64,000 nucleotides of DNA from an uncultured Muribaculaceae bacterium (lineage in GTDB: Bacteria > Bacillota_I > Bacilli_A > RF39 > UBA660): the NCBI GenBank assembly GCA_964600615.1, contig CAZRJK010000005.1, forward strand, positions 7,398 to 71,397, read 5' to 3'. The position numbers and the translations under genes are program-made. The notes below the pieces were generated by a model, which did no database searches, was not told the origin of the DNA, and saw only the letters and a list, made by a program, of their open reading frames with translations. Of this stretch, positions 11,035-18,019 are shown piece by piece. Every line of letters starts with the position of its first letter. The first letter of the stretch is position 1.

Positions 11035-11289
11035 TTATTTAATCATACTTACAAGCTCCTCATATATATTATCAGGAATTTCTATTCCTAATTTTTTATC
11101 TAATATTTTATTCTTTTTACACTTTTCAATAACTGCAATATCCTTCTTTAAATAAGCTCCTCTACCATTAGCTTTACCACTTAAATCAATAAATATTTCA
11201 TTATCTTTATTTTTTACTACTCTTATTAAATCCTTTTTCTCAAATTTTTCCATAGTCACAATACAACTACGCATTGGTATCTTCTTCAT
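11035..11289 (-). CDS. ylxR: YlxR/RnpM family RNA-binding protein (DUF448)
   Basis: 84 aa. 'PMRSCIVT...DLIRVV...GKANGRGAYL'. Sits between nusA and infB. Overlaps the nusA end by 23 nt. Confidence 0.85.
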   Translation of the reverse strand: MKKIPMRSCIVTMEKFEKKDLIRVVKNKDNEIFIDLSGKANGRGAYLKKDIAVIEKCKKNKILDKKLGIEIPDNIYEELVSMIK

Positions 11290-12393: not shown

Positions 12394-12642
12394 TTATTCA
12401 CCTTTCTCCTTTGAAGATATATCTAATATATAACTATCAGAAATAATATCATGCTTATCAAGAATCTCATTAACAACCTTAGTAACATCTACTACTGTAT
12501 CAATATCAATAATCTTATCTCTATCAATAATAATTCTTAAAAAATAATTATTACCTTCCTTAATATATTCAATACTATCAATAAGTATTCCCATATCATT
12601 AACTGGTTTCTCAATCAAATTCTTAACTTTCTCTTCTATCAT
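12394..12642 (-). CDS. rimP: Ribosome maturation factor RimP, N-terminal domain only (82 aa)
   Basis: Lies immediately upstream of nusA. 'YFLRIIIDRD...ISDSYILDISS' resembles the RimP N-domain ('Y.LEVSSPG' region). The ORF stops 2 nt before the nusA ATG, and its last codons (AAGGAGAAAGGTGA) form the nusA SD. Confidence 0.65.
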   Translation of the reverse strand: MIEEKVKNLIEKPVNDMGILIDSIEYIKEGNNYFLRIIIDRDKIIDIDTVVDVTKVVNEILDKHDIISDSYILDISSKEKGE

Positions 12643-12663
12643 AAATCCTCCTAATTAATATTA

Positions 12664-12690
12664 AAAAGTGGACTTCATAAGGCCACTTTT
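12664..12690 (-). promoter_or_regulatory. Terminator-like hairpin in the rimP-nusA-infB leader (candidate attenuator)
   Basis: Minus strand reads AAAAGTGG, an 11-nt loop, CCACTTTT, then TAAT. It lies about 20 nt upstream of the rimP SD. The stem is weak and is followed by a U-run. Confidence 0.4.
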
Positions 12691-12723
12691 CTCTCAAGAC
12701 ATGCATATTATATCATTATAACA

Positions 12724-12750
12724 ACAAAAAAACAAGACAAATCTTGTTTT
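12724..12750 (-). terminator. Rho-independent terminator after pgsA
   Basis: Inverted repeat aacaaga (12731-12737) / tcttgtt (12742-12748), flanked by A/T runs on both sides. Confidence 0.65.
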
Positions 12751-13344
12751 TTATTTAGTTTCTATATATTCACTTGCCATAGTATAATACTTAAATCCAC
12801 TAATTAATGCAAATACAGCAGATATAATTAATAATACATCACTAACTCTAATACCTATAAGTTCAAAAGGTAAATTATAGAACAAAGCAAAAGTTAAACC
12901 AACCATCAAAGTAGCAGTCTTACACTTAGCAGTATAAATAGCTGCTACAGCATGTCCTTTATTACCAACAATCATCTTCATAGAATCAACAGCAAAATCC
13001 CTAACAATAATTATAACTGCCACAGTTGTACTAACCATTCCTTGACTAGCTAAAATAATTAATAAAGAATTAGTAAGCATTTTATCACTAATAGCATCAA
13101 CCATCTTACCAAAATCAGTAACCATATTATACTTTCTAGCAACACGACCATCAAAAAAATCAGTTAAAGATGCTATTATAAACAAGACACCAGCTATAAT
13201 GTATTTAAGTTCAACATAAACTTTACCAGCAACCATAAAACTAGGCAAATTCATATTCAAACTCTCAAAAGGAAATAATAATAGTATCATTATAACAATC
13301 GCCAAAACAACCCTAGATAACGTAATCTTATTCGCTAAATTCAT
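12751..13344 (-). CDS. pgsA: CDP-diacylglycerol--glycerol-3-phosphate 3-phosphatidyltransferase
   Basis: 197 aa. CDP-alcohol phosphatidyltransferase motif 'DFFDGRVARKYNMVTDFGKMVDAISDK'. Multi-TM. rodZ lies upstream, as in Bacillus. Confidence 0.9.
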   Translation of the reverse strand: MNLANKITLSRVVLAIVIMILLLFPFESLNMNLPSFMVAGKVYVELKYIIAGVLFIIASLTDFFDGRVARKYNMVTDFGKMVDAISDKMLTNSLLIILASQGMVSTTVAVIIIVRDFAVDSMKMIVGNKGHAVAAIYTAKCKTATLMVGLTFALFYNLPFELIGIRVSDVLLIISAVFALISGFKYYTMASEYIETK

Positions 13345-13825
13345 TTTTCTCTCCCATCCTATAACTTATTTTACTACTTACAAAATCATCATTACCACCT
13401 TTATTTCTAGCAAGCAAATATACACCCACTAAAATTATAACTATAATTATAAAAGCAATAATAATAATTTTTCTTCTCTTTTTATCCTTATTTGTCAAAG
13501 TATATGGAGATAAAATCTTCATATTCTTTTCACTTTCTTCTTTTTCTTTTTTAGCTTTCTCAATATCCTCTAAAGAAATCTTCGAAGTCTCTTCAAATAA
13601 ATATTCATTAAAAGAATCAAGCATTTCTTCACCATCAAGTCCTAAATACTTAGCATAATCTCTAATAAACAATTTCAAAGATAAAACATCCTTAAAATCA
13701 TCTTTTCGTCCTTCTTCAATACTCTCTAATTGACTAACACGCATTTTAAGATCTTCAGCAGCTTCTTCTAGACTAACACCGTTATCCTCTCTTTTTTGCT
13801 TTAATCTTAATCCTATTTCTTTCAT
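13328..13825 (-). CDS. rodZ: RodZ-like cytoskeleton-associated protein (XRE-type HTH plus one TM)
   Basis: 165 aa. HTH 'IGLRLKQKREDNGVSLEEAAEDLKMRVSQLESIEEG', TM 'IIIIAFIIIVIILVGVYLL'. Position upstream of pgsA matches ymfM/rodZ in B. subtilis. Confidence 0.7.
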   Translation of the reverse strand: MKEIGLRLKQKREDNGVSLEEAAEDLKMRVSQLESIEEGRKDDFKDVLSLKLFIRDYAKYLGLDGEEMLDSFNEYLFEETSKISLEDIEKAKKEKEESEKNMKILSPYTLTNKDKKRRKIIIIAFIIIVIILVGVYLLARNKGGNDDFVSSKISYRMGEKNEFSE

Positions 13826-13844
13826 ATTATCTCCTTAACAAAAC

Positions 13845-14200
13845 AATAATTAATCTTATAAGCCACGTTCTGTACCTAAAAGGCGGTAAACATTTATCTA
13901 TAGTTTAACTATCCATTCAGAAATTCTTATTATCCCTTCATGATTCCTCTACCATAATTTGAGTTTCTTGCTTGTGGGGTTTACCTCGTTTCACCATTTA
14001 TATTTCTATAAATTCTCGTCACTGTGGCACTTTTATACTAATTAATTCATAGCAATGCCTTAGAATTAATTAAAGCCGTAAGCAAAGCTTCCTTAGGTTA
14101 TTTATTCCCTAAGCACAAACACTACTATCATCACAGATAGTGCAAGCGTGGACTTTCCTCTATATATATAAATATACAGCGTTTACCCAGATCAATTATT
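13845..14200 (-). ncRNA. rnpB: RNase P RNA, type B (Firmicute type)
   Basis: The minus strand contains the universally conserved 'GAGGAAAGUCCACGC' (14146-14160) and 'ACAGAACGUGGCUUA' (about 13859-13875). It also has the type-B blocks 'GUGCCACAGUGACGA', 'GGUAAACCCCACAAGCAAGAAACUCAAAUUAUGGUAGAGGAA'. I paired a 12-bp P1 by hand: 5' AAUAAUUGAUCU (14200-14189) with 3' AGAUUAAUUAUU (13856-13845). It lies next to gpsB, as in B. subtilis. Confidence 0.9.
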
Positions 14201-14521
14201 CTCTTTACCTAAAATAATCTTCTCCAATTGACTTACTCTACGTATTAAATCAACATTACTAACTTCCTTAGAAGAAGAAAACTTCAATGCTTCCATATTA
14301 GACTTAAGATCTCTAATTTCCTCTTTTAAACTCTCATTTTCCATCGACAATTTATTATTCATAGTAGCTATCTCTTTTATAATACCATTAAACTCATTGT
14401 AATCTTTAATTATAATATCAAGATATTTATCAACTTCCTGCAAATTGTAACCTCTAGCATCAATCTTAAAATCCTTCTCTAAAATCTCTTGACCACTTAA
14501 AGTTATTCTATCATGATACAT
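14192..14521 (-). CDS. gpsB: Cell-cycle protein GpsB (DivIVA-domain)
   Basis: 109 aa. 'LSGQEILEKDFKIDARGYNLQEVDKYLDIIIKDYNEF' is the DivIVA/GpsB N-domain, followed by a coiled coil. Adjacent to rnpB. Confidence 0.85.
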   Translation of the reverse strand: MYHDRITLSGQEILEKDFKIDARGYNLQEVDKYLDIIIKDYNEFNGIIKEIATMNNKLSMENESLKEEIRDLKSNMEALKFSSSKEVSNVDLIRRVSQLEKIILGKENN

Positions 14522-14621
14522 ACTAGACCACCTCTATAATAATATTTTAATTTATTTATAACTATTTGTCAATTAATAATAAGAATTTAAAAAAGCTAAC
14601 AAACATAATACCATAAAATCA

Positions 14622-15452
14622 CTAATTAGTCAATTTTTGACATTTATCACAATAATAAGTTCCCCTTCCACCAACCTTAGTTTTAAGTATTATACTGCCA
14701 CATTTTGGACATTTTTTACCTTCCTTAGTATGAACATTTAATTCTTGTTGAAACAAGCCATGAACACCATCTACACTACTATAACTCCTAATAGTAGTTC
14801 CACCCTTCTTTATCGCACCTTCTAACTCATTTCTAGTATTCTTAATAATACTGTCCATTTCTTTATCACTTAAATCCATAGCTTTTTTCATCGGATTAAT
14901 ACCAGATAAAAACAATATCTCATCAGCATAAATATTACCAATACCAACAATAATACTTTGATCTAAAAGTACACTTTTAATAGGCAGTCTCTTCTTACTA
15001 TATTTATCACGTAGATAATTAACATTAAGCTTCTTATCCCATGGATCTAATCCCAAATCAACTAAAGGACCAACAACATCTATCTTATCCTTAGATATTA
15101 AATGCATCTTACCAAATTTTCTAACATCCATATACCTAAGTTCCATACCATTATCTAATATAAATACTACATGTTCATGCTTATTTAATTCATCTACCTT
15201 ATTCTTGATAAAGTATTTTCCTTCCATTCTTAAATGAGATAATAAATAATAATCATCTAAAACAAAAATTAACCATTTACCATATCTATCAATATCATTA
15301 ATTCTTTGCCCTTTTATATTAGTACAAAACTCTTTTACACTAGGATATTCTATAATACCATCATAATAAATTTCAACAGAACTAATAATTCTATTTCTAA
15401 CTTTTAACCTTAAACTCTGTCTAACAGTCTCTACTTCAGGTAATTCTGGCAT
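14622..15452 (-). CDS. mutM: Formamidopyrimidine-DNA glycosylase
   Basis: 276 aa. 'MPELPEVETV' N-terminus and a C-terminal zinc finger 'CPKCGS...YYCDKCQ'. Downstream of polA, as in Bacillus. Confidence 0.95.
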   Translation of the reverse strand: MPELPEVETVRQSLRLKVRNRIISSVEIYYDGIIEYPSVKEFCTNIKGQRINDIDRYGKWLIFVLDDYYLLSHLRMEGKYFIKNKVDELNKHEHVVFILDNGMELRYMDVRKFGKMHLISKDKIDVVGPLVDLGLDPWDKKLNVNYLRDKYSKKRLPIKSVLLDQSIIVGIGNIYADEILFLSGINPMKKAMDLSDKEMDSIIKNTRNELEGAIKKGGTTIRSYSSVDGVHGLFQQELNVHTKEGKKCPKCGSIILKTKVGGRGTYYCDKCQKLTN

Positions 15453-15463
15453 AATATCACTTC

Positions 15464-18019
15464 CTACTTAGCTTCATATAAATCTTTACCAATAGATATT
15501 TCAACTTCTAAAGGAACACTCAATTTATATATTTTCTCCATAATATCCTTTACAATCTTCTTAACTTCTTCTAATTCATCATTACAAACATTAAATATAA
15601 GTTCATCATGTATTTGTAACAACATCTTACTCTTTAACTTCTTCTTTATAAATTCTTTATCAATCTTAATCATAGCCATCTTCAATATATCAGCACTACT
15701 ACCCTGTATAGGAGTATTTAAAGCCATTCTTTCACCCATACTCCTAATATTATAATTAGTATTCTTAAGCTCATTAATAACTCTTCTTCTACCAGTAATA
15801 GTCTTAACATATCCTAGTTCATAAGCCCTTTTTATTTCTTCATCCATATAATTCTTAATACCAGGATAAGTCTTAAAATAATTATCTATAAATTCCCTTG
15901 CTTCCTTAGGACTAATACCTAAATCTTGAGATAAACCATAACTTGATATACCATATATAATACCAAAATTAACAGCCTTTGCCCCTCTTCTCATATCCTT
16001 AGTAACATTATCCATATCTACATGATATATCAAAGAAGCAGTATGCGTATGAATATCAAAATTATTTAAAAAAGCTTCTTTCATACTATCAATATTAGCT
16101 AAATGAGCAAACACCCTAAGTTCTATTTGCGAATAATCACTACTTAAAATAACACTATCCTCATCACTAACAAAACTCTTTCTAATTAACCTACCATATT
16201 CATTTCTAATAGGAATATTCTGTAAATTAGGTTCTATAGAAGATAACCTACCAGTCCTAGTTAAAGCTTGTGTATAAATAGTATGTATCTTACCATCATC
16301 CATAATATTAGCTTTAAGCCCTTCTATATATGTAGTATATAACTTATTTAACATTCTATATTCAAGTATTAACCCAATAATAGGATAACCTCTTAACTTA
16401 GATAAAGTTGCCTCATCTGTAGCATAATTACCACTTTTACCCTTCTTACCATGAGGCATCTCTAATTTATTAAATAATATATCCCCTAATTGTTTAGGAC
16501 TAGCTATATTAAACTCACACCCAGCCAAATCATATATACTCTTACTAACATCATTAATTCTAGATTGAATATCTTCACCCATTTTATCCAATATCTTACT
16601 ATCACATCTAATACCTTCATATTCCATTCTACCAAGAACAAAAGACAAAGGCATTTCTATATCGTTATATATATTCAATACCCCACTATGTTTCATTTCA
16701 TCCATTAACTTATCTTTTATCTCATATATAAACTTAGCCTTCATTACACATCTCTTTGCTCTATCTTCCAAAGACAAATCCTCTTTCTTATCATAAAAAG
16801 GAATATCTACTCCCATATCATGAGCAACATAGGCAATATCATCATTAACATTATAATTTAACAAATAACAAGAAAGCATAATATCATCACTAATATTACT
16901 TAATTCTATTCCTAATTTCTTAAAACTAACATATAATCTTTTAGCATCATAAGTATAAATATTTCCTTTAATATTAGATAAATCAAAATTATTCCTCAAA
17001 TAAATATTATTATTCTTATTATATATACCAATACCTAAAATATTTCCCTTATGATAATTAGTATTATCCATATCCATATAAATTGAAACATCATCATTAA
17101 TCTTTAAATTACCAATATCACTAACAATATTTACCTTAATATCTTCATTATTACTAACAACATCAACCTTCTTAATAAAAGAATAAAACTCTAATTCATT
17201 ATATAAATCAATCAATTTCTTACTAGTACTATTATTATACTTAATATCAACAAAATCTATATCAATAGGTACTTCTTTATATATAGTAGCAATCTCTTTG
17301 CTCATAAAAGCACTATCTCTACCATCTCTAAGTTTGTTACCAATAGTACCTTTAACATCATCAATATGCTCATATAAATTTTCTATAGTATCATATTCTT
17401 GTAATAATTTTAAAGCCGTCTTCTCTCCAATCCCCTTAACACCAGGAATATTATCAGAAGAATCACCCATTAAACCCTTTAAATCAATCATTCTAATAGG
17501 TTCTATACCATAAGTACTAACAAAAGTATCATGATTCATCATTATATAATCCTTACTCTTTAACAATTTAACAGATACATCATCACTAATTAGTTGCAAT
17601 AAATCCTTATCACTACTAACAATTAATCCATCATAATTAGAATCCTCATCAATCATTCTAGAAAAAGTCCCAATAATATCATCAGCCTCATAACCAGGAA
17701 CTTCTAAATATTTAATCCCCATAGCAGTAAGTATTTCCTTAGCAACAGGAAATTGCATTTTTAATTCATCAGGAGTTTCAATCCTACCATCTTTATAACT
17801 ATCATACTTATCATGCCTAAAAGTCTTTCCTACATCAAAAGCCACCAAAATATACTTAGGATTTTCTTCACTAATAATCTTATTTATCATATTAACAAAA
17901 CCATACAAACCATTAGTAGGAAAACCCTTACTATTTCTCATAATATTACCACTATAAGCAGTAGCATAATAACTTCTAAACAATAAATTATTACCATCAA
18001 CTAATATAACCTTTTCCAT
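15464..18019 (-). CDS. polA: DNA polymerase I
   Basis: 851 aa. 5'-nuclease region 'LVDGNNLLFRSYYA', 'GDSSDNIPGVKGIGEKTA'. Pol motifs 'DYSQIELRV', 'RRGAKAVNFGIIYG', 'QIHDELIF'. Confidence 0.95.
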   Translation of the reverse strand: MEKVILVDGNNLLFRSYYATAYSGNIMRNSKGFPTNGLYGFVNMINKIISEENPKYILVAFDVGKTFRHDKYDSYKDGRIETPDELKMQFPVAKEILTAMGIKYLEVPGYEADDIIGTFSRMIDEDSNYDGLIVSSDKDLLQLISDDVSVKLLKSKDYIMMNHDTFVSTYGIEPIRMIDLKGLMGDSSDNIPGVKGIGEKTALKLLQEYDTIENLYEHIDDVKGTIGNKLRDGRDSAFMSKEIATIYKEVPIDIDFVDIKYNNSTSKKLIDLYNELEFYSFIKKVDVVSNNEDIKVNIVSDIGNLKINDDVSIYMDMDNTNYHKGNILGIGIYNKNNNIYLRNNFDLSNIKGNIYTYDAKRLYVSFKKLGIELSNISDDIMLSCYLLNYNVNDDIAYVAHDMGVDIPFYDKKEDLSLEDRAKRCVMKAKFIYEIKDKLMDEMKHSGVLNIYNDIEMPLSFVLGRMEYEGIRCDSKILDKMGEDIQSRINDVSKSIYDLAGCEFNIASPKQLGDILFNKLEMPHGKKGKSGNYATDEATLSKLRGYPIIGLILEYRMLNKLYTTYIEGLKANIMDDGKIHTIYTQALTRTGRLSSIEPNLQNIPIRNEYGRLIRKSFVSDEDSVILSSDYSQIELRVFAHLANIDSMKEAFLNNFDIHTHTASLIYHVDMDNVTKDMRRGAKAVNFGIIYGISSYGLSQDLGISPKEAREFIDNYFKTYPGIKNYMDEEIKRAYELGYVKTITGRRRVINELKNTNYNIRSMGERMALNTPIQGSSADILKMAMIKIDKEFIKKKLKSKMLLQIHDELIFNVCNDELEEVKKIVKDIMEKIYKLSVPLEVEISIGKDLYEAK

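Follow-up and report, generated by a model that had tools for sequence, protein, structure and literature searches.

Type-B RNase P RNA gene with a P1 helix that overlaps the end of gpsB, in a gpsB-rnpB-rodZ layout shared by uncultured gut Bacilli

The DNA analyzed here (the window) is a stretch of 64,000 nucleotides (nt) from an uncultured Muribaculaceae bacterium (GTDB lineage Bacillota_I; Bacilli_A; RF39; UBA660), taken from contig CAZRJK010000005.1 of assembly GCA_964600615.1 (positions 7,398 to 71,397, forward strand). On its minus strand, between positions 14521 and 12751, gpsB, a 366-nt stretch free of open reading frames (ORFs), a rodZ-like gene and pgsA follow one another in a row. 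The ORF-free stretch (13826-14191) was found to be rnpB, the gene of ribonuclease P (RNase P) RNA, with all of its conserved blocks, as a preliminary description of the same DNA had proposed. The P1 helix of this RNA overlaps the end of gpsB, and the gpsB-rnpB-rodZ layout recurs in about 100 uncultured relatives from the gut. As a rule, the gene of RNase P RNA is viewed as a unit by itself, flanked by a promoter and a terminator of its own. In this lineage, gpsB, rnpB, the rodZ-like gene and pgsA probably form one transcription unit, in which rnpB would be co-transcribed and then excised by nucleases.

When the window was scanned using cmscan, the type-B RNase P RNA model (RF00011, RNaseP_bact_b) matched positions 13854-14194 of the minus strand with 278 bits (gathering score 97; E-value 4.8e-81). 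The alignment spans model positions 1-365 of 365, is not truncated, and is the only RF00011 match in the 1.39-Mb, 54-contig assembly. The conserved blocks GAGGAAAGUCC (P4/CR-I), GUGCCACAGUGACG, AGAUAAAUG and ACAGAACGUGGCUUA (CR-V) were all aligned with high posterior probability, and the conserved blocks of RF00011 are invariant or nearly so in 30 relatives. The type-B helices P5.1, P10.1 and P15.1 were assigned in the alignment, replacing P13, P14, P16 and P17 of type A, and P19 is a stub of 2 base pairs (bp), with P9 and P18 shortened (the helix names are our own reading of the structure line of the Rfam model). A short P19 is common among the small-genome relatives. The protein partner RnpA is also encoded in the genome (PF00825, 91 bits). 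Judged from these matches, the gene is the single, functional type-B RNase P RNA gene of the organism, with catalysis predicted, and it is an ordinary member of RF00011. Two sets of boundaries are used below:

13854-14194, minus strand: rnpB core as bounded by the Rfam type-B model (cmscan)
13845-14200, minus strand: inferred mature RNase P RNA with the full P1, about 356 nt, each end uncertain by about 5 nt

The preliminary description had also stressed that an RNA of about 356 nt is short. This holds when it is compared with the RNase P RNAs of B. licheniformis and S. pneumoniae (401 nt). However, the compactness was overstated, as the size is ordinary for the class: the Rfam-bounded rnpB measures 275-443 nt across 150 genomes of the class and 331-359 nt in the clade. 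The idea of an exceptionally compact RNA was rejected on the class range.

The two ends of the RNA pair with each other over a longer distance than the Rfam match covers. The segments AAUAAUUGAUCU (14200-14189) and AGAUUAAUUAUU (13856-13845) form 12 contiguous bp with one G-U pair (G14193-U13852), and the Rfam pair G14188-U13858 adds to the helix across a bulged A13857. In full, P1 measures about 13 bp; the last two sense codons of gpsB, the stop codon and the four bases that follow make up its 5' strand. Even the Rfam match alone begins within gpsB, the TGA stop codon (14194-14192) being its first three bases. The features concerned are as follows:

14192-14521, minus strand: gpsB, 109 amino acids (aa), DivIVA-domain cell-division regulator, stop codon TGA at 14194-14192 (ORF list)
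14188-14200, minus strand: P1 5' strand, gpsB codons AAT AAT, the TGA stop, then TCTG (sequence; covariation at alignment columns 15-21)
13845-13858, minus strand: P1 3' strand, U-A-AGAUUAAUUAUU with A13857 bulged (sequence and cmscan alignment; covariation at alignment columns 421-427)

The Rfam boundaries are shorter than the full P1 because the type-B model carries only 4 bp of this helix, and for type-B rnpB genes they leave out about 6-10 nt of the RNA at either end. In B. subtilis, the mature RNase P RNA has a P1 of about 11-12 bp, extending beyond the 4 bp modelled in Rfam. The preliminary description had built P1 by hand from the final gpsB codons and the stop, pairing them over 12 bp (one G-U) with 13856-13845. 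The same pairing was recovered here and exceeds shuffled sequences; the RF00011 scan returned a complete rnpB at 13854-14194 and placed P1 nowhere else, so the overlap was not refuted. Only 51 of 100,000 composition-preserving shuffles of both flanks reached the 9-bp anchored ungapped extension beyond the Rfam P1. In addition, the minimum-free-energy and centroid folds of 13838-14206 both close with the extended P1, plus four weaker outer pairs.

The extended pairing might instead be a by-product of base composition: the gpsB coding sequence, A-rich at its end through Lys, Glu and Asn codons, would face a U-rich spacer, and the mature RNA would start at or after the stop codon, with no functional overlap with gpsB. 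Both strands of the extension are indeed nearly pure A/U, a one-base bulge is needed to hold the helix in many congeners, and within the clade non-cognate flanks still pair over about 17 bp at -8.3 kcal/mol (cognate, -12.2 kcal/mol), a point that weighs against the overlap. The alignment speaks otherwise. When 30 diverse relatives with 16-nt flanks were analyzed using RNAalifold, P1 was predicted between columns 15-21 and 421-427, and at each pair 7-13 sequences had both sides altered, the same columns switching among AU, UA, GC and CG across families. These columns correspond to window positions 14196-14190, which comprise the stop of gpsB together with two bases of its final Asn codon.

The register of the pairing is also specific. 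Among the 63 relatives with exact Rfam anchors, the mean anchored ungapped extension beyond the Rfam P1 was 5.1 bp for cognate flanks, and it fell to 0.2-1.3 bp when the 3' partner was slid by 1-3 nt and to 1.3 bp with non-cognate partners. Across 23 lineages, the mean P1-flank duplex energy was -12.2 kcal/mol for cognate versus -5.3 kcal/mol for non-cognate flanks, and the cognate flank ranked first in 13 of the 23. With these results, and with the stop codon lying inside even the Rfam-bounded RNA, we regard the by-product explanation as very improbable. P1 and the end of gpsB really do overlap: the direct pairing, the folds, the covariation, the slid-register and non-cognate controls and the energies all exceed chance. 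The outer pairs of P1 (14197-14200, and the four optional pairs past the G-G mismatch) are less certain than the inner ones, because the A-rich 5' and U-rich 3' flanks of the clade pair even between non-cognate genomes.

The position of the mature 5' end was estimated from relatives in which rnpB has a TATAAT box of its own. There, transcription is predicted to start 4-7 nt ahead of Rfam position 1, at the base of the extended P1. Because the register is the same, the mature 5' end in the window is probably near 14200 and the RNA would span 14200-13845, give or take a few nt at each end.

The gpsB stop codon is TGA in the window versus TAA in 16 of the 17 congeners. The G of this TGA wobbles with U13852 and P1 is thereby kept paired, and most congeners have a one-base bulge in the 5' strand of P1 (AATAAT-T-AATCT versus AGATTATTATT). 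We also considered genetic code 4, under which TGA would be read as Trp and gpsB would be extended into rnpB. This was rejected, as polA, infB and nusA are intact under table 11 and 16 of the 17 congeners have TAA at the same position.

The host lineage consists of uncultured small-genome gut Bacilli, with relatives that include Clostridium sp. CAG:1193, CAG:1000, Candidatus Aphodocola and Candidatus Onthousia; further relatives are metagenome-assembled genomes (MAGs) from goat, rabbit, chicken and human gut. The relatives counted below are uncultured MAGs and are not statistically independent of one another. gpsB abuts rnpB in all 17 same-genus relatives with an rnpB match. The stop codon occupies Rfam positions 1-3 in 15 of the 17, as it does in the window, and overlaps by 2 nt in one; in the remaining relative the overlap, judged from the alignment only, looks alike. 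A rodZ-like gene comes next after rnpB in 16 of these relatives, and the contig of the other stops just past rnpB. Beyond the genus, the abutment was observed in the other genera of the family (7/7) and in the one other family of the order (1/1), with a rodZ-like gene next in five of those seven genera and in the order representative.

A search of species representatives extended the gpsB-rnpB-rodZ layout to 79 of 80 further loci. In 75 of 79 loci of the clade, the gpsB stop falls no more than 3 nt to either side of Rfam position 1, and the rodZ start lies 22-49 nt past the Rfam 3' end in all 79 (for loci L040-L119, rnpB was placed with an nhmmer profile, and its coordinates may deviate from those of Rfam by 1-2 nt). 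Among the outliers in stop position that were inspected, one proved to be an alignment artefact and in the others P1 starts at or just after the stop. Near-zero gaps between gpsB and rnpB also occur in six other families of the class, and a rodZ-like gene as the immediate 3' neighbour of rnpB was found in this order only, among the genomes sampled. The class holds both rnpB genes with their own promoter and embedded ones, and in this sample the embedded state tracks small genomes. A TATAAT box belonging to rnpB itself was identified at eleven loci, several of which lack gpsB upstream.

The signals around the four genes of the window were then placed as follows:

14544-14572, minus strand: predicted sigma-A/sigma-70-type promoter (TTGACA, 17-nt spacer, TAAAAT; 11 of 12 matches), the best-scoring site in 12600-15600
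13831-13836, minus strand: Shine-Dalgarno sequence AAGGAG of the rodZ-like gene, 5 nt before its ATG (sequence)
13328-13825, minus strand: rodZ-like gene, 165 aa (Pfam HTH_25, 60.2 bits)
12751-13344, minus strand: pgsA (TIGR00560, 139 bits versus a cut-off of 109), overlapping the rodZ-like gene by 17 nt
12721-12750, minus strand: first terminator-like element past the gpsB promoter, a 9-bp AU-rich hairpin (AAAACAAGA, loop UUUG, UCUUGUUUU) followed by UUUGUUGU (read from sequence)

The -10 hexamer of the predicted promoter ends 22 nt ahead of the gpsB ATG, and its TTGACA is invariant in 17 of 17 aligned sequences of the genus, the window included. Ahead of gpsB, the top-scoring hexamer pair matches at 10-12 of 12 positions in each of the 78 clade loci whose upstream sequence was long enough; 25 of these pairs are perfect, 69 have an exact TTGACA, and 68 have a -10 hexamer whose end is 17-30 nt from the gpsB start. 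There is no room for a promoter between gpsB and rnpB, as had been described. At the other end, the hairpin past pgsA stands directly 3' of the pgsA stop and has only 2 G-C pairs; the automatic terminator scan needs at least 3 and missed it. No terminator-like element was found between gpsB and pgsA in the window scan, which agrees with the earlier view that rnpB and rodZ are not separated by one, the first such element being the hairpin past pgsA.

On this layout, the transcription unit that we think likely would work in the following way. RNA polymerase would start at the gpsB promoter (14572-14544) and read to the hairpin and U-run past pgsA (about 12750-12721). GpsB would be translated on the nascent or unprocessed transcript, either before P1 forms or competing with its formation. 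RNase Y, or RNase J in an endonucleolytic role, could then cut within the gpsB messenger RNA (mRNA) and within the 8-nt spacer ahead of the rodZ Shine-Dalgarno sequence. RNase J1/J2 would trim in the 5'-to-3' direction until blocked at the base of P1, with 3' exonucleases blocked on the other side, and the stable ribozyme, bound by RnpA, would accumulate while the flanking mRNAs turn over. Because a stable ribozyme would be excised, one promoter could serve both an abundant RNA and proteins of low abundance. Two RNase J paralogues (TIGR00649, 579 and 423 bits, both above the cut-off) and RNase Y (700 bits) are encoded in the genome, as is RNase III.

Several points weigh against such a unit. 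The promoter, the terminator and the processing steps have all been read from sequence, and in this AT-rich genome the scan returned 22 promoter-like sites versus 20.3 expected by chance. Even in S. aureus no endonuclease has been named for the cut, and there a start site close to rnpB may also contribute (PMC3937233). Finally, a weak TAnnnT hexamer, TATTTT (14216-14211), is plausibly spaced from the base of P1, albeit without a -35 partner.

The last two points bear on the main alternative, in which rnpB is made mainly from a weak promoter of its own in the 3' end of gpsB, with the primary 5' end at the P1 base as in Bacillus-type genes and with read-through from gpsB minor or irrelevant. In a variant of it, such a promoter would add to read-through, as has been suggested for S. 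aureus, where the candidate start coincides with the mature 5' end. Larger-genome families of the class do have a TATAAT box 11-17 nt upstream of Rfam position 1, with the start at the P1 base. Likewise, rnpB of B. subtilis has a native promoter, RnpB of B. licheniformis is an independent 401-nt transcript, and the TATTTT hexamer of the window keeps the TAnnnT pattern in most congeners. However, the absence of a -35 partner counts against this hexamer, and it shifts with synonymous Ile/Leu codons (TATTTT, TATATT, TAATTT, TAATAC and TAGTAT). Positions -14 to -7 before rnpB, which would have to hold the -10 box for a start at the P1 base, differ freely between congeners, following their choice of codons.

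The promoter scans also go against an internal start. Within the last 150 nt of gpsB, the best hexamer pairs of the 79 clade loci scanned matched at 7-10 of 12 positions (mostly 8-9), the same as control coding DNA, versus 10-12 upstream of gpsB, and no minus-strand promoter-like site was detected between 14521 and 13826 in the window scan. AATAAT (14200-14195), the hexamer most like a -10 box, was discarded as a candidate, as transcription would start inside the covarying P1 and the covariation-supported strand would be removed. We therefore hold a main promoter inside gpsB to be possible and rather doubtful. The preliminary description had left the choice between excision from a polycistron and an internal gpsB promoter; excision is favoured by the promoter found upstream of gpsB throughout the clade and by published precedents, and the second option lost ground as the internal sites resemble control DNA.

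The junction between rnpB and the rodZ-like gene raises a different alternative, in which P1 and the U-rich run UGUUUUGUU terminate transcription in part, as an intrinsic terminator, with rnpB as the last gene of the unit; rodZ and pgsA would then be served by a promoter in the 3' part of rnpB or by leaky read-through. A 13-bp helix followed by 7 U in 9 nt does resemble the geometry of a terminator, and the 99-211-nt spacers before rodZ in three congeners could house signals of their own. Nevertheless, we do not regard P1 as a terminator because the U-rich run after it is not conserved in the relatives, two of which, for example, pass from P1 straight into the Shine-Dalgarno sequence. P1 is a long-range, nearly all-AU helix that closes 340 nt and not a nascent hairpin, and the window scan found no minus-strand promoter-like site within rnpB. 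The Shine-Dalgarno sequence begins 8 nt past the end of P1, and 19 nt separate that end (13845) from the rodZ ATG (13825), in agreement with the distance of about 19 nt described before, with the Shine-Dalgarno sequence (13836-13831) in between. An AGGAG-type Shine-Dalgarno sequence stands at the same place in relatives, and the 22-49-nt spacing with this sequence right after P1, seen in 79 of 79 clade loci, is typical of a junction inside an operon. Termination at P1 is quite improbable in our judgement, and continuation of the transcript from rnpB into rodZ and pgsA is preferred.

Some variation of this junction was observed among congeners. The rnpB-rodZ spacer measures 49-54 nt in five of them, and some have a small hairpin (e.g. 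GCTAAT-CA-ATTAGC) without a U-run between P1 and the rodZ Shine-Dalgarno sequence, which is absent from the window. This hairpin could be a processing or stability element.

A further possibility is that the shared nucleotides are functional in themselves. Each transcript would then serve either as mRNA (P1 open and a ribosome terminating within P1) or as ribozyme (P1 closed and the flanks degraded). If true, the synthesis of GpsB, RodZ and PgsA would be tied to, and limited by, the folding and maturation of RNase P RNA, and envelope growth would be linked to the capacity for transfer RNA processing across a whole order of reduced-genome gut Bacilli. Nothing in the analysis supports such a switch specifically, and we offer it as an unlikely, speculative extension of the excision reading.

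The proteins encoded around rnpB were assigned with different degrees of support. The gpsB product matches Pfam DivIVA in its N-terminal part (36.7 bits), and the GpsB equivalog NF010725 gave 89.3 bits versus a cut-off of 91 (positions 3-105 of 111); its orthology with GpsB is predicted, with the conserved neighbourhood of rnpB in support. The 165-aa protein has an N-terminal HTH_25 domain, a Lys/Glu-rich linker, one transmembrane helix and a short tail, and no Pfam or NCBIfam match to the RodZ C-terminal domain was found in it. Matches to the RodZ equivalogs are weak and N-terminal (about 32 bits versus cut-offs of 208 and 375). Because of these low scores and the missing C-terminal match, the name RodZ-like is used; the homologues in the clade are mostly of similar length (about 132-168 aa in ORF calls). 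The adjacency of the rodZ-like gene and pgsA corresponds to ymfM-pgsA of B. subtilis.

Further observations were made downstream of pgsA. The nusA operon begins about 100 nt past the pgsA terminator, and TTGTTATAATGATATAAT, which follows the hairpin, is the likely -10 region of this rimP-nusA operon. Terminators in this genome are probably under-called by a scan that requires at least 3 G-C pairs. The RimP gene (12394-12642, minus strand) encodes only 82 aa and matches only the N-terminal domain of RimP (PF02576, 56 bits). The operon also encodes an 84-aa YlxR/DUF448 protein (11035-11289, minus strand; PF04296, 93 bits). Overexpression of YlxR/RnpM, as this family is called in one paper, is reported there to raise RNase P RNA levels (PMC11622646), and rnpB lies about 2.6 kb upstream of the YlxR gene of the window, a member of this family linked to RNase P RNA.

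With the layout found here, a whole lineage of about 100 species of uncultured small-genome gut Bacilli has lost both of the intergenic regions that flank rnpB. No new kind of molecule or mechanism is revealed by it. Nonetheless, it is a clean example from nature in which to study the production of an abundant stable RNA and of scarce mRNAs from a single transcript. There is also a consequence for annotation: when rnpB is annotated from Rfam only, its overlaps with neighbouring genes are hidden, and pipelines that forbid overlap between coding sequences and non-coding RNAs will mis-trim either gpsB or rnpB.

The layout of the window is the tightest form of a gpsB-rnpB linkage that is known from staphylococci and streptococci. 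Our literature searches for an overlap of P1 with a stop codon or for other rnpB polycistrons yielded only the S. aureus and S. agalactiae papers, and no description of such an overlap came up. In S. aureus, a gpsB (SA1279)-rnpB RNA from +1 to +915 has been demonstrated, and rnpB is matured by an endonuclease and by RNase J trimming to an end protected by P1; RNase J mutants accumulate rnpB intermediates (Linder et al. 2014, PMC3937233). The window resembles this system in that gpsB lies immediately upstream on the same strand, no terminator stands between the two genes, and RNase J1/J2 are present. However, S. aureus has a spacer between gpsB and rnpB (intermediates at +452 to +477, mature end at +485) and the window has none, and the S. 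aureus unit ends at about +915, just past rnpB, whereas in the window protein genes continue without a terminator (PMC3937233). The P1 of the window, unlike that of S. aureus, is built from gpsB codons and the stop.

For S. agalactiae, processing of RnpB out of a longer RNA has been reported as likely; that transcript also includes gpsB and, further downstream, protein-coding genes, and the gpsB-rnpB association is conserved in all streptococci (Rosinski-Chupin et al. 2015, PMC4448216). The genes downstream of rnpB differ, with a 23S ribosomal RNA (rRNA) methylase and a protein of unknown function in S. agalactiae and the rodZ-like gene and pgsA in the window. As compared by description only, no overlap of P1 with the gpsB stop is described in that paper (PMC4448216).

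The rnpB genes of B. subtilis and B. licheniformis belong to the same RNA family and have the same gpsB-rnpB synteny as the window. They are independent units, with a native promoter and with full-length P19 and P9; the RNA of the window is about 45 nt shorter than the 401-nt Bacillus reference and has no intergenic space on either side. The processing stalks of rRNA, which are cut by RNase III or Mini-III, are alike in that there, too, a stable RNA is cut out of a longer transcript with its two end sequences paired. The likeness is an analogy only, as the pairing in the window is the functional P1, which is kept in the mature RNA, and no evidence of RNase III cleavage at the P1 of the window was seen. 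The excision of rnpB from a gpsB transcript by nucleases has already been published and is not new. What differs from the known gpsB-rnpB operons is the degree of compaction and the partners, a rodZ-like gene and pgsA, which are fixed in roughly a hundred species.

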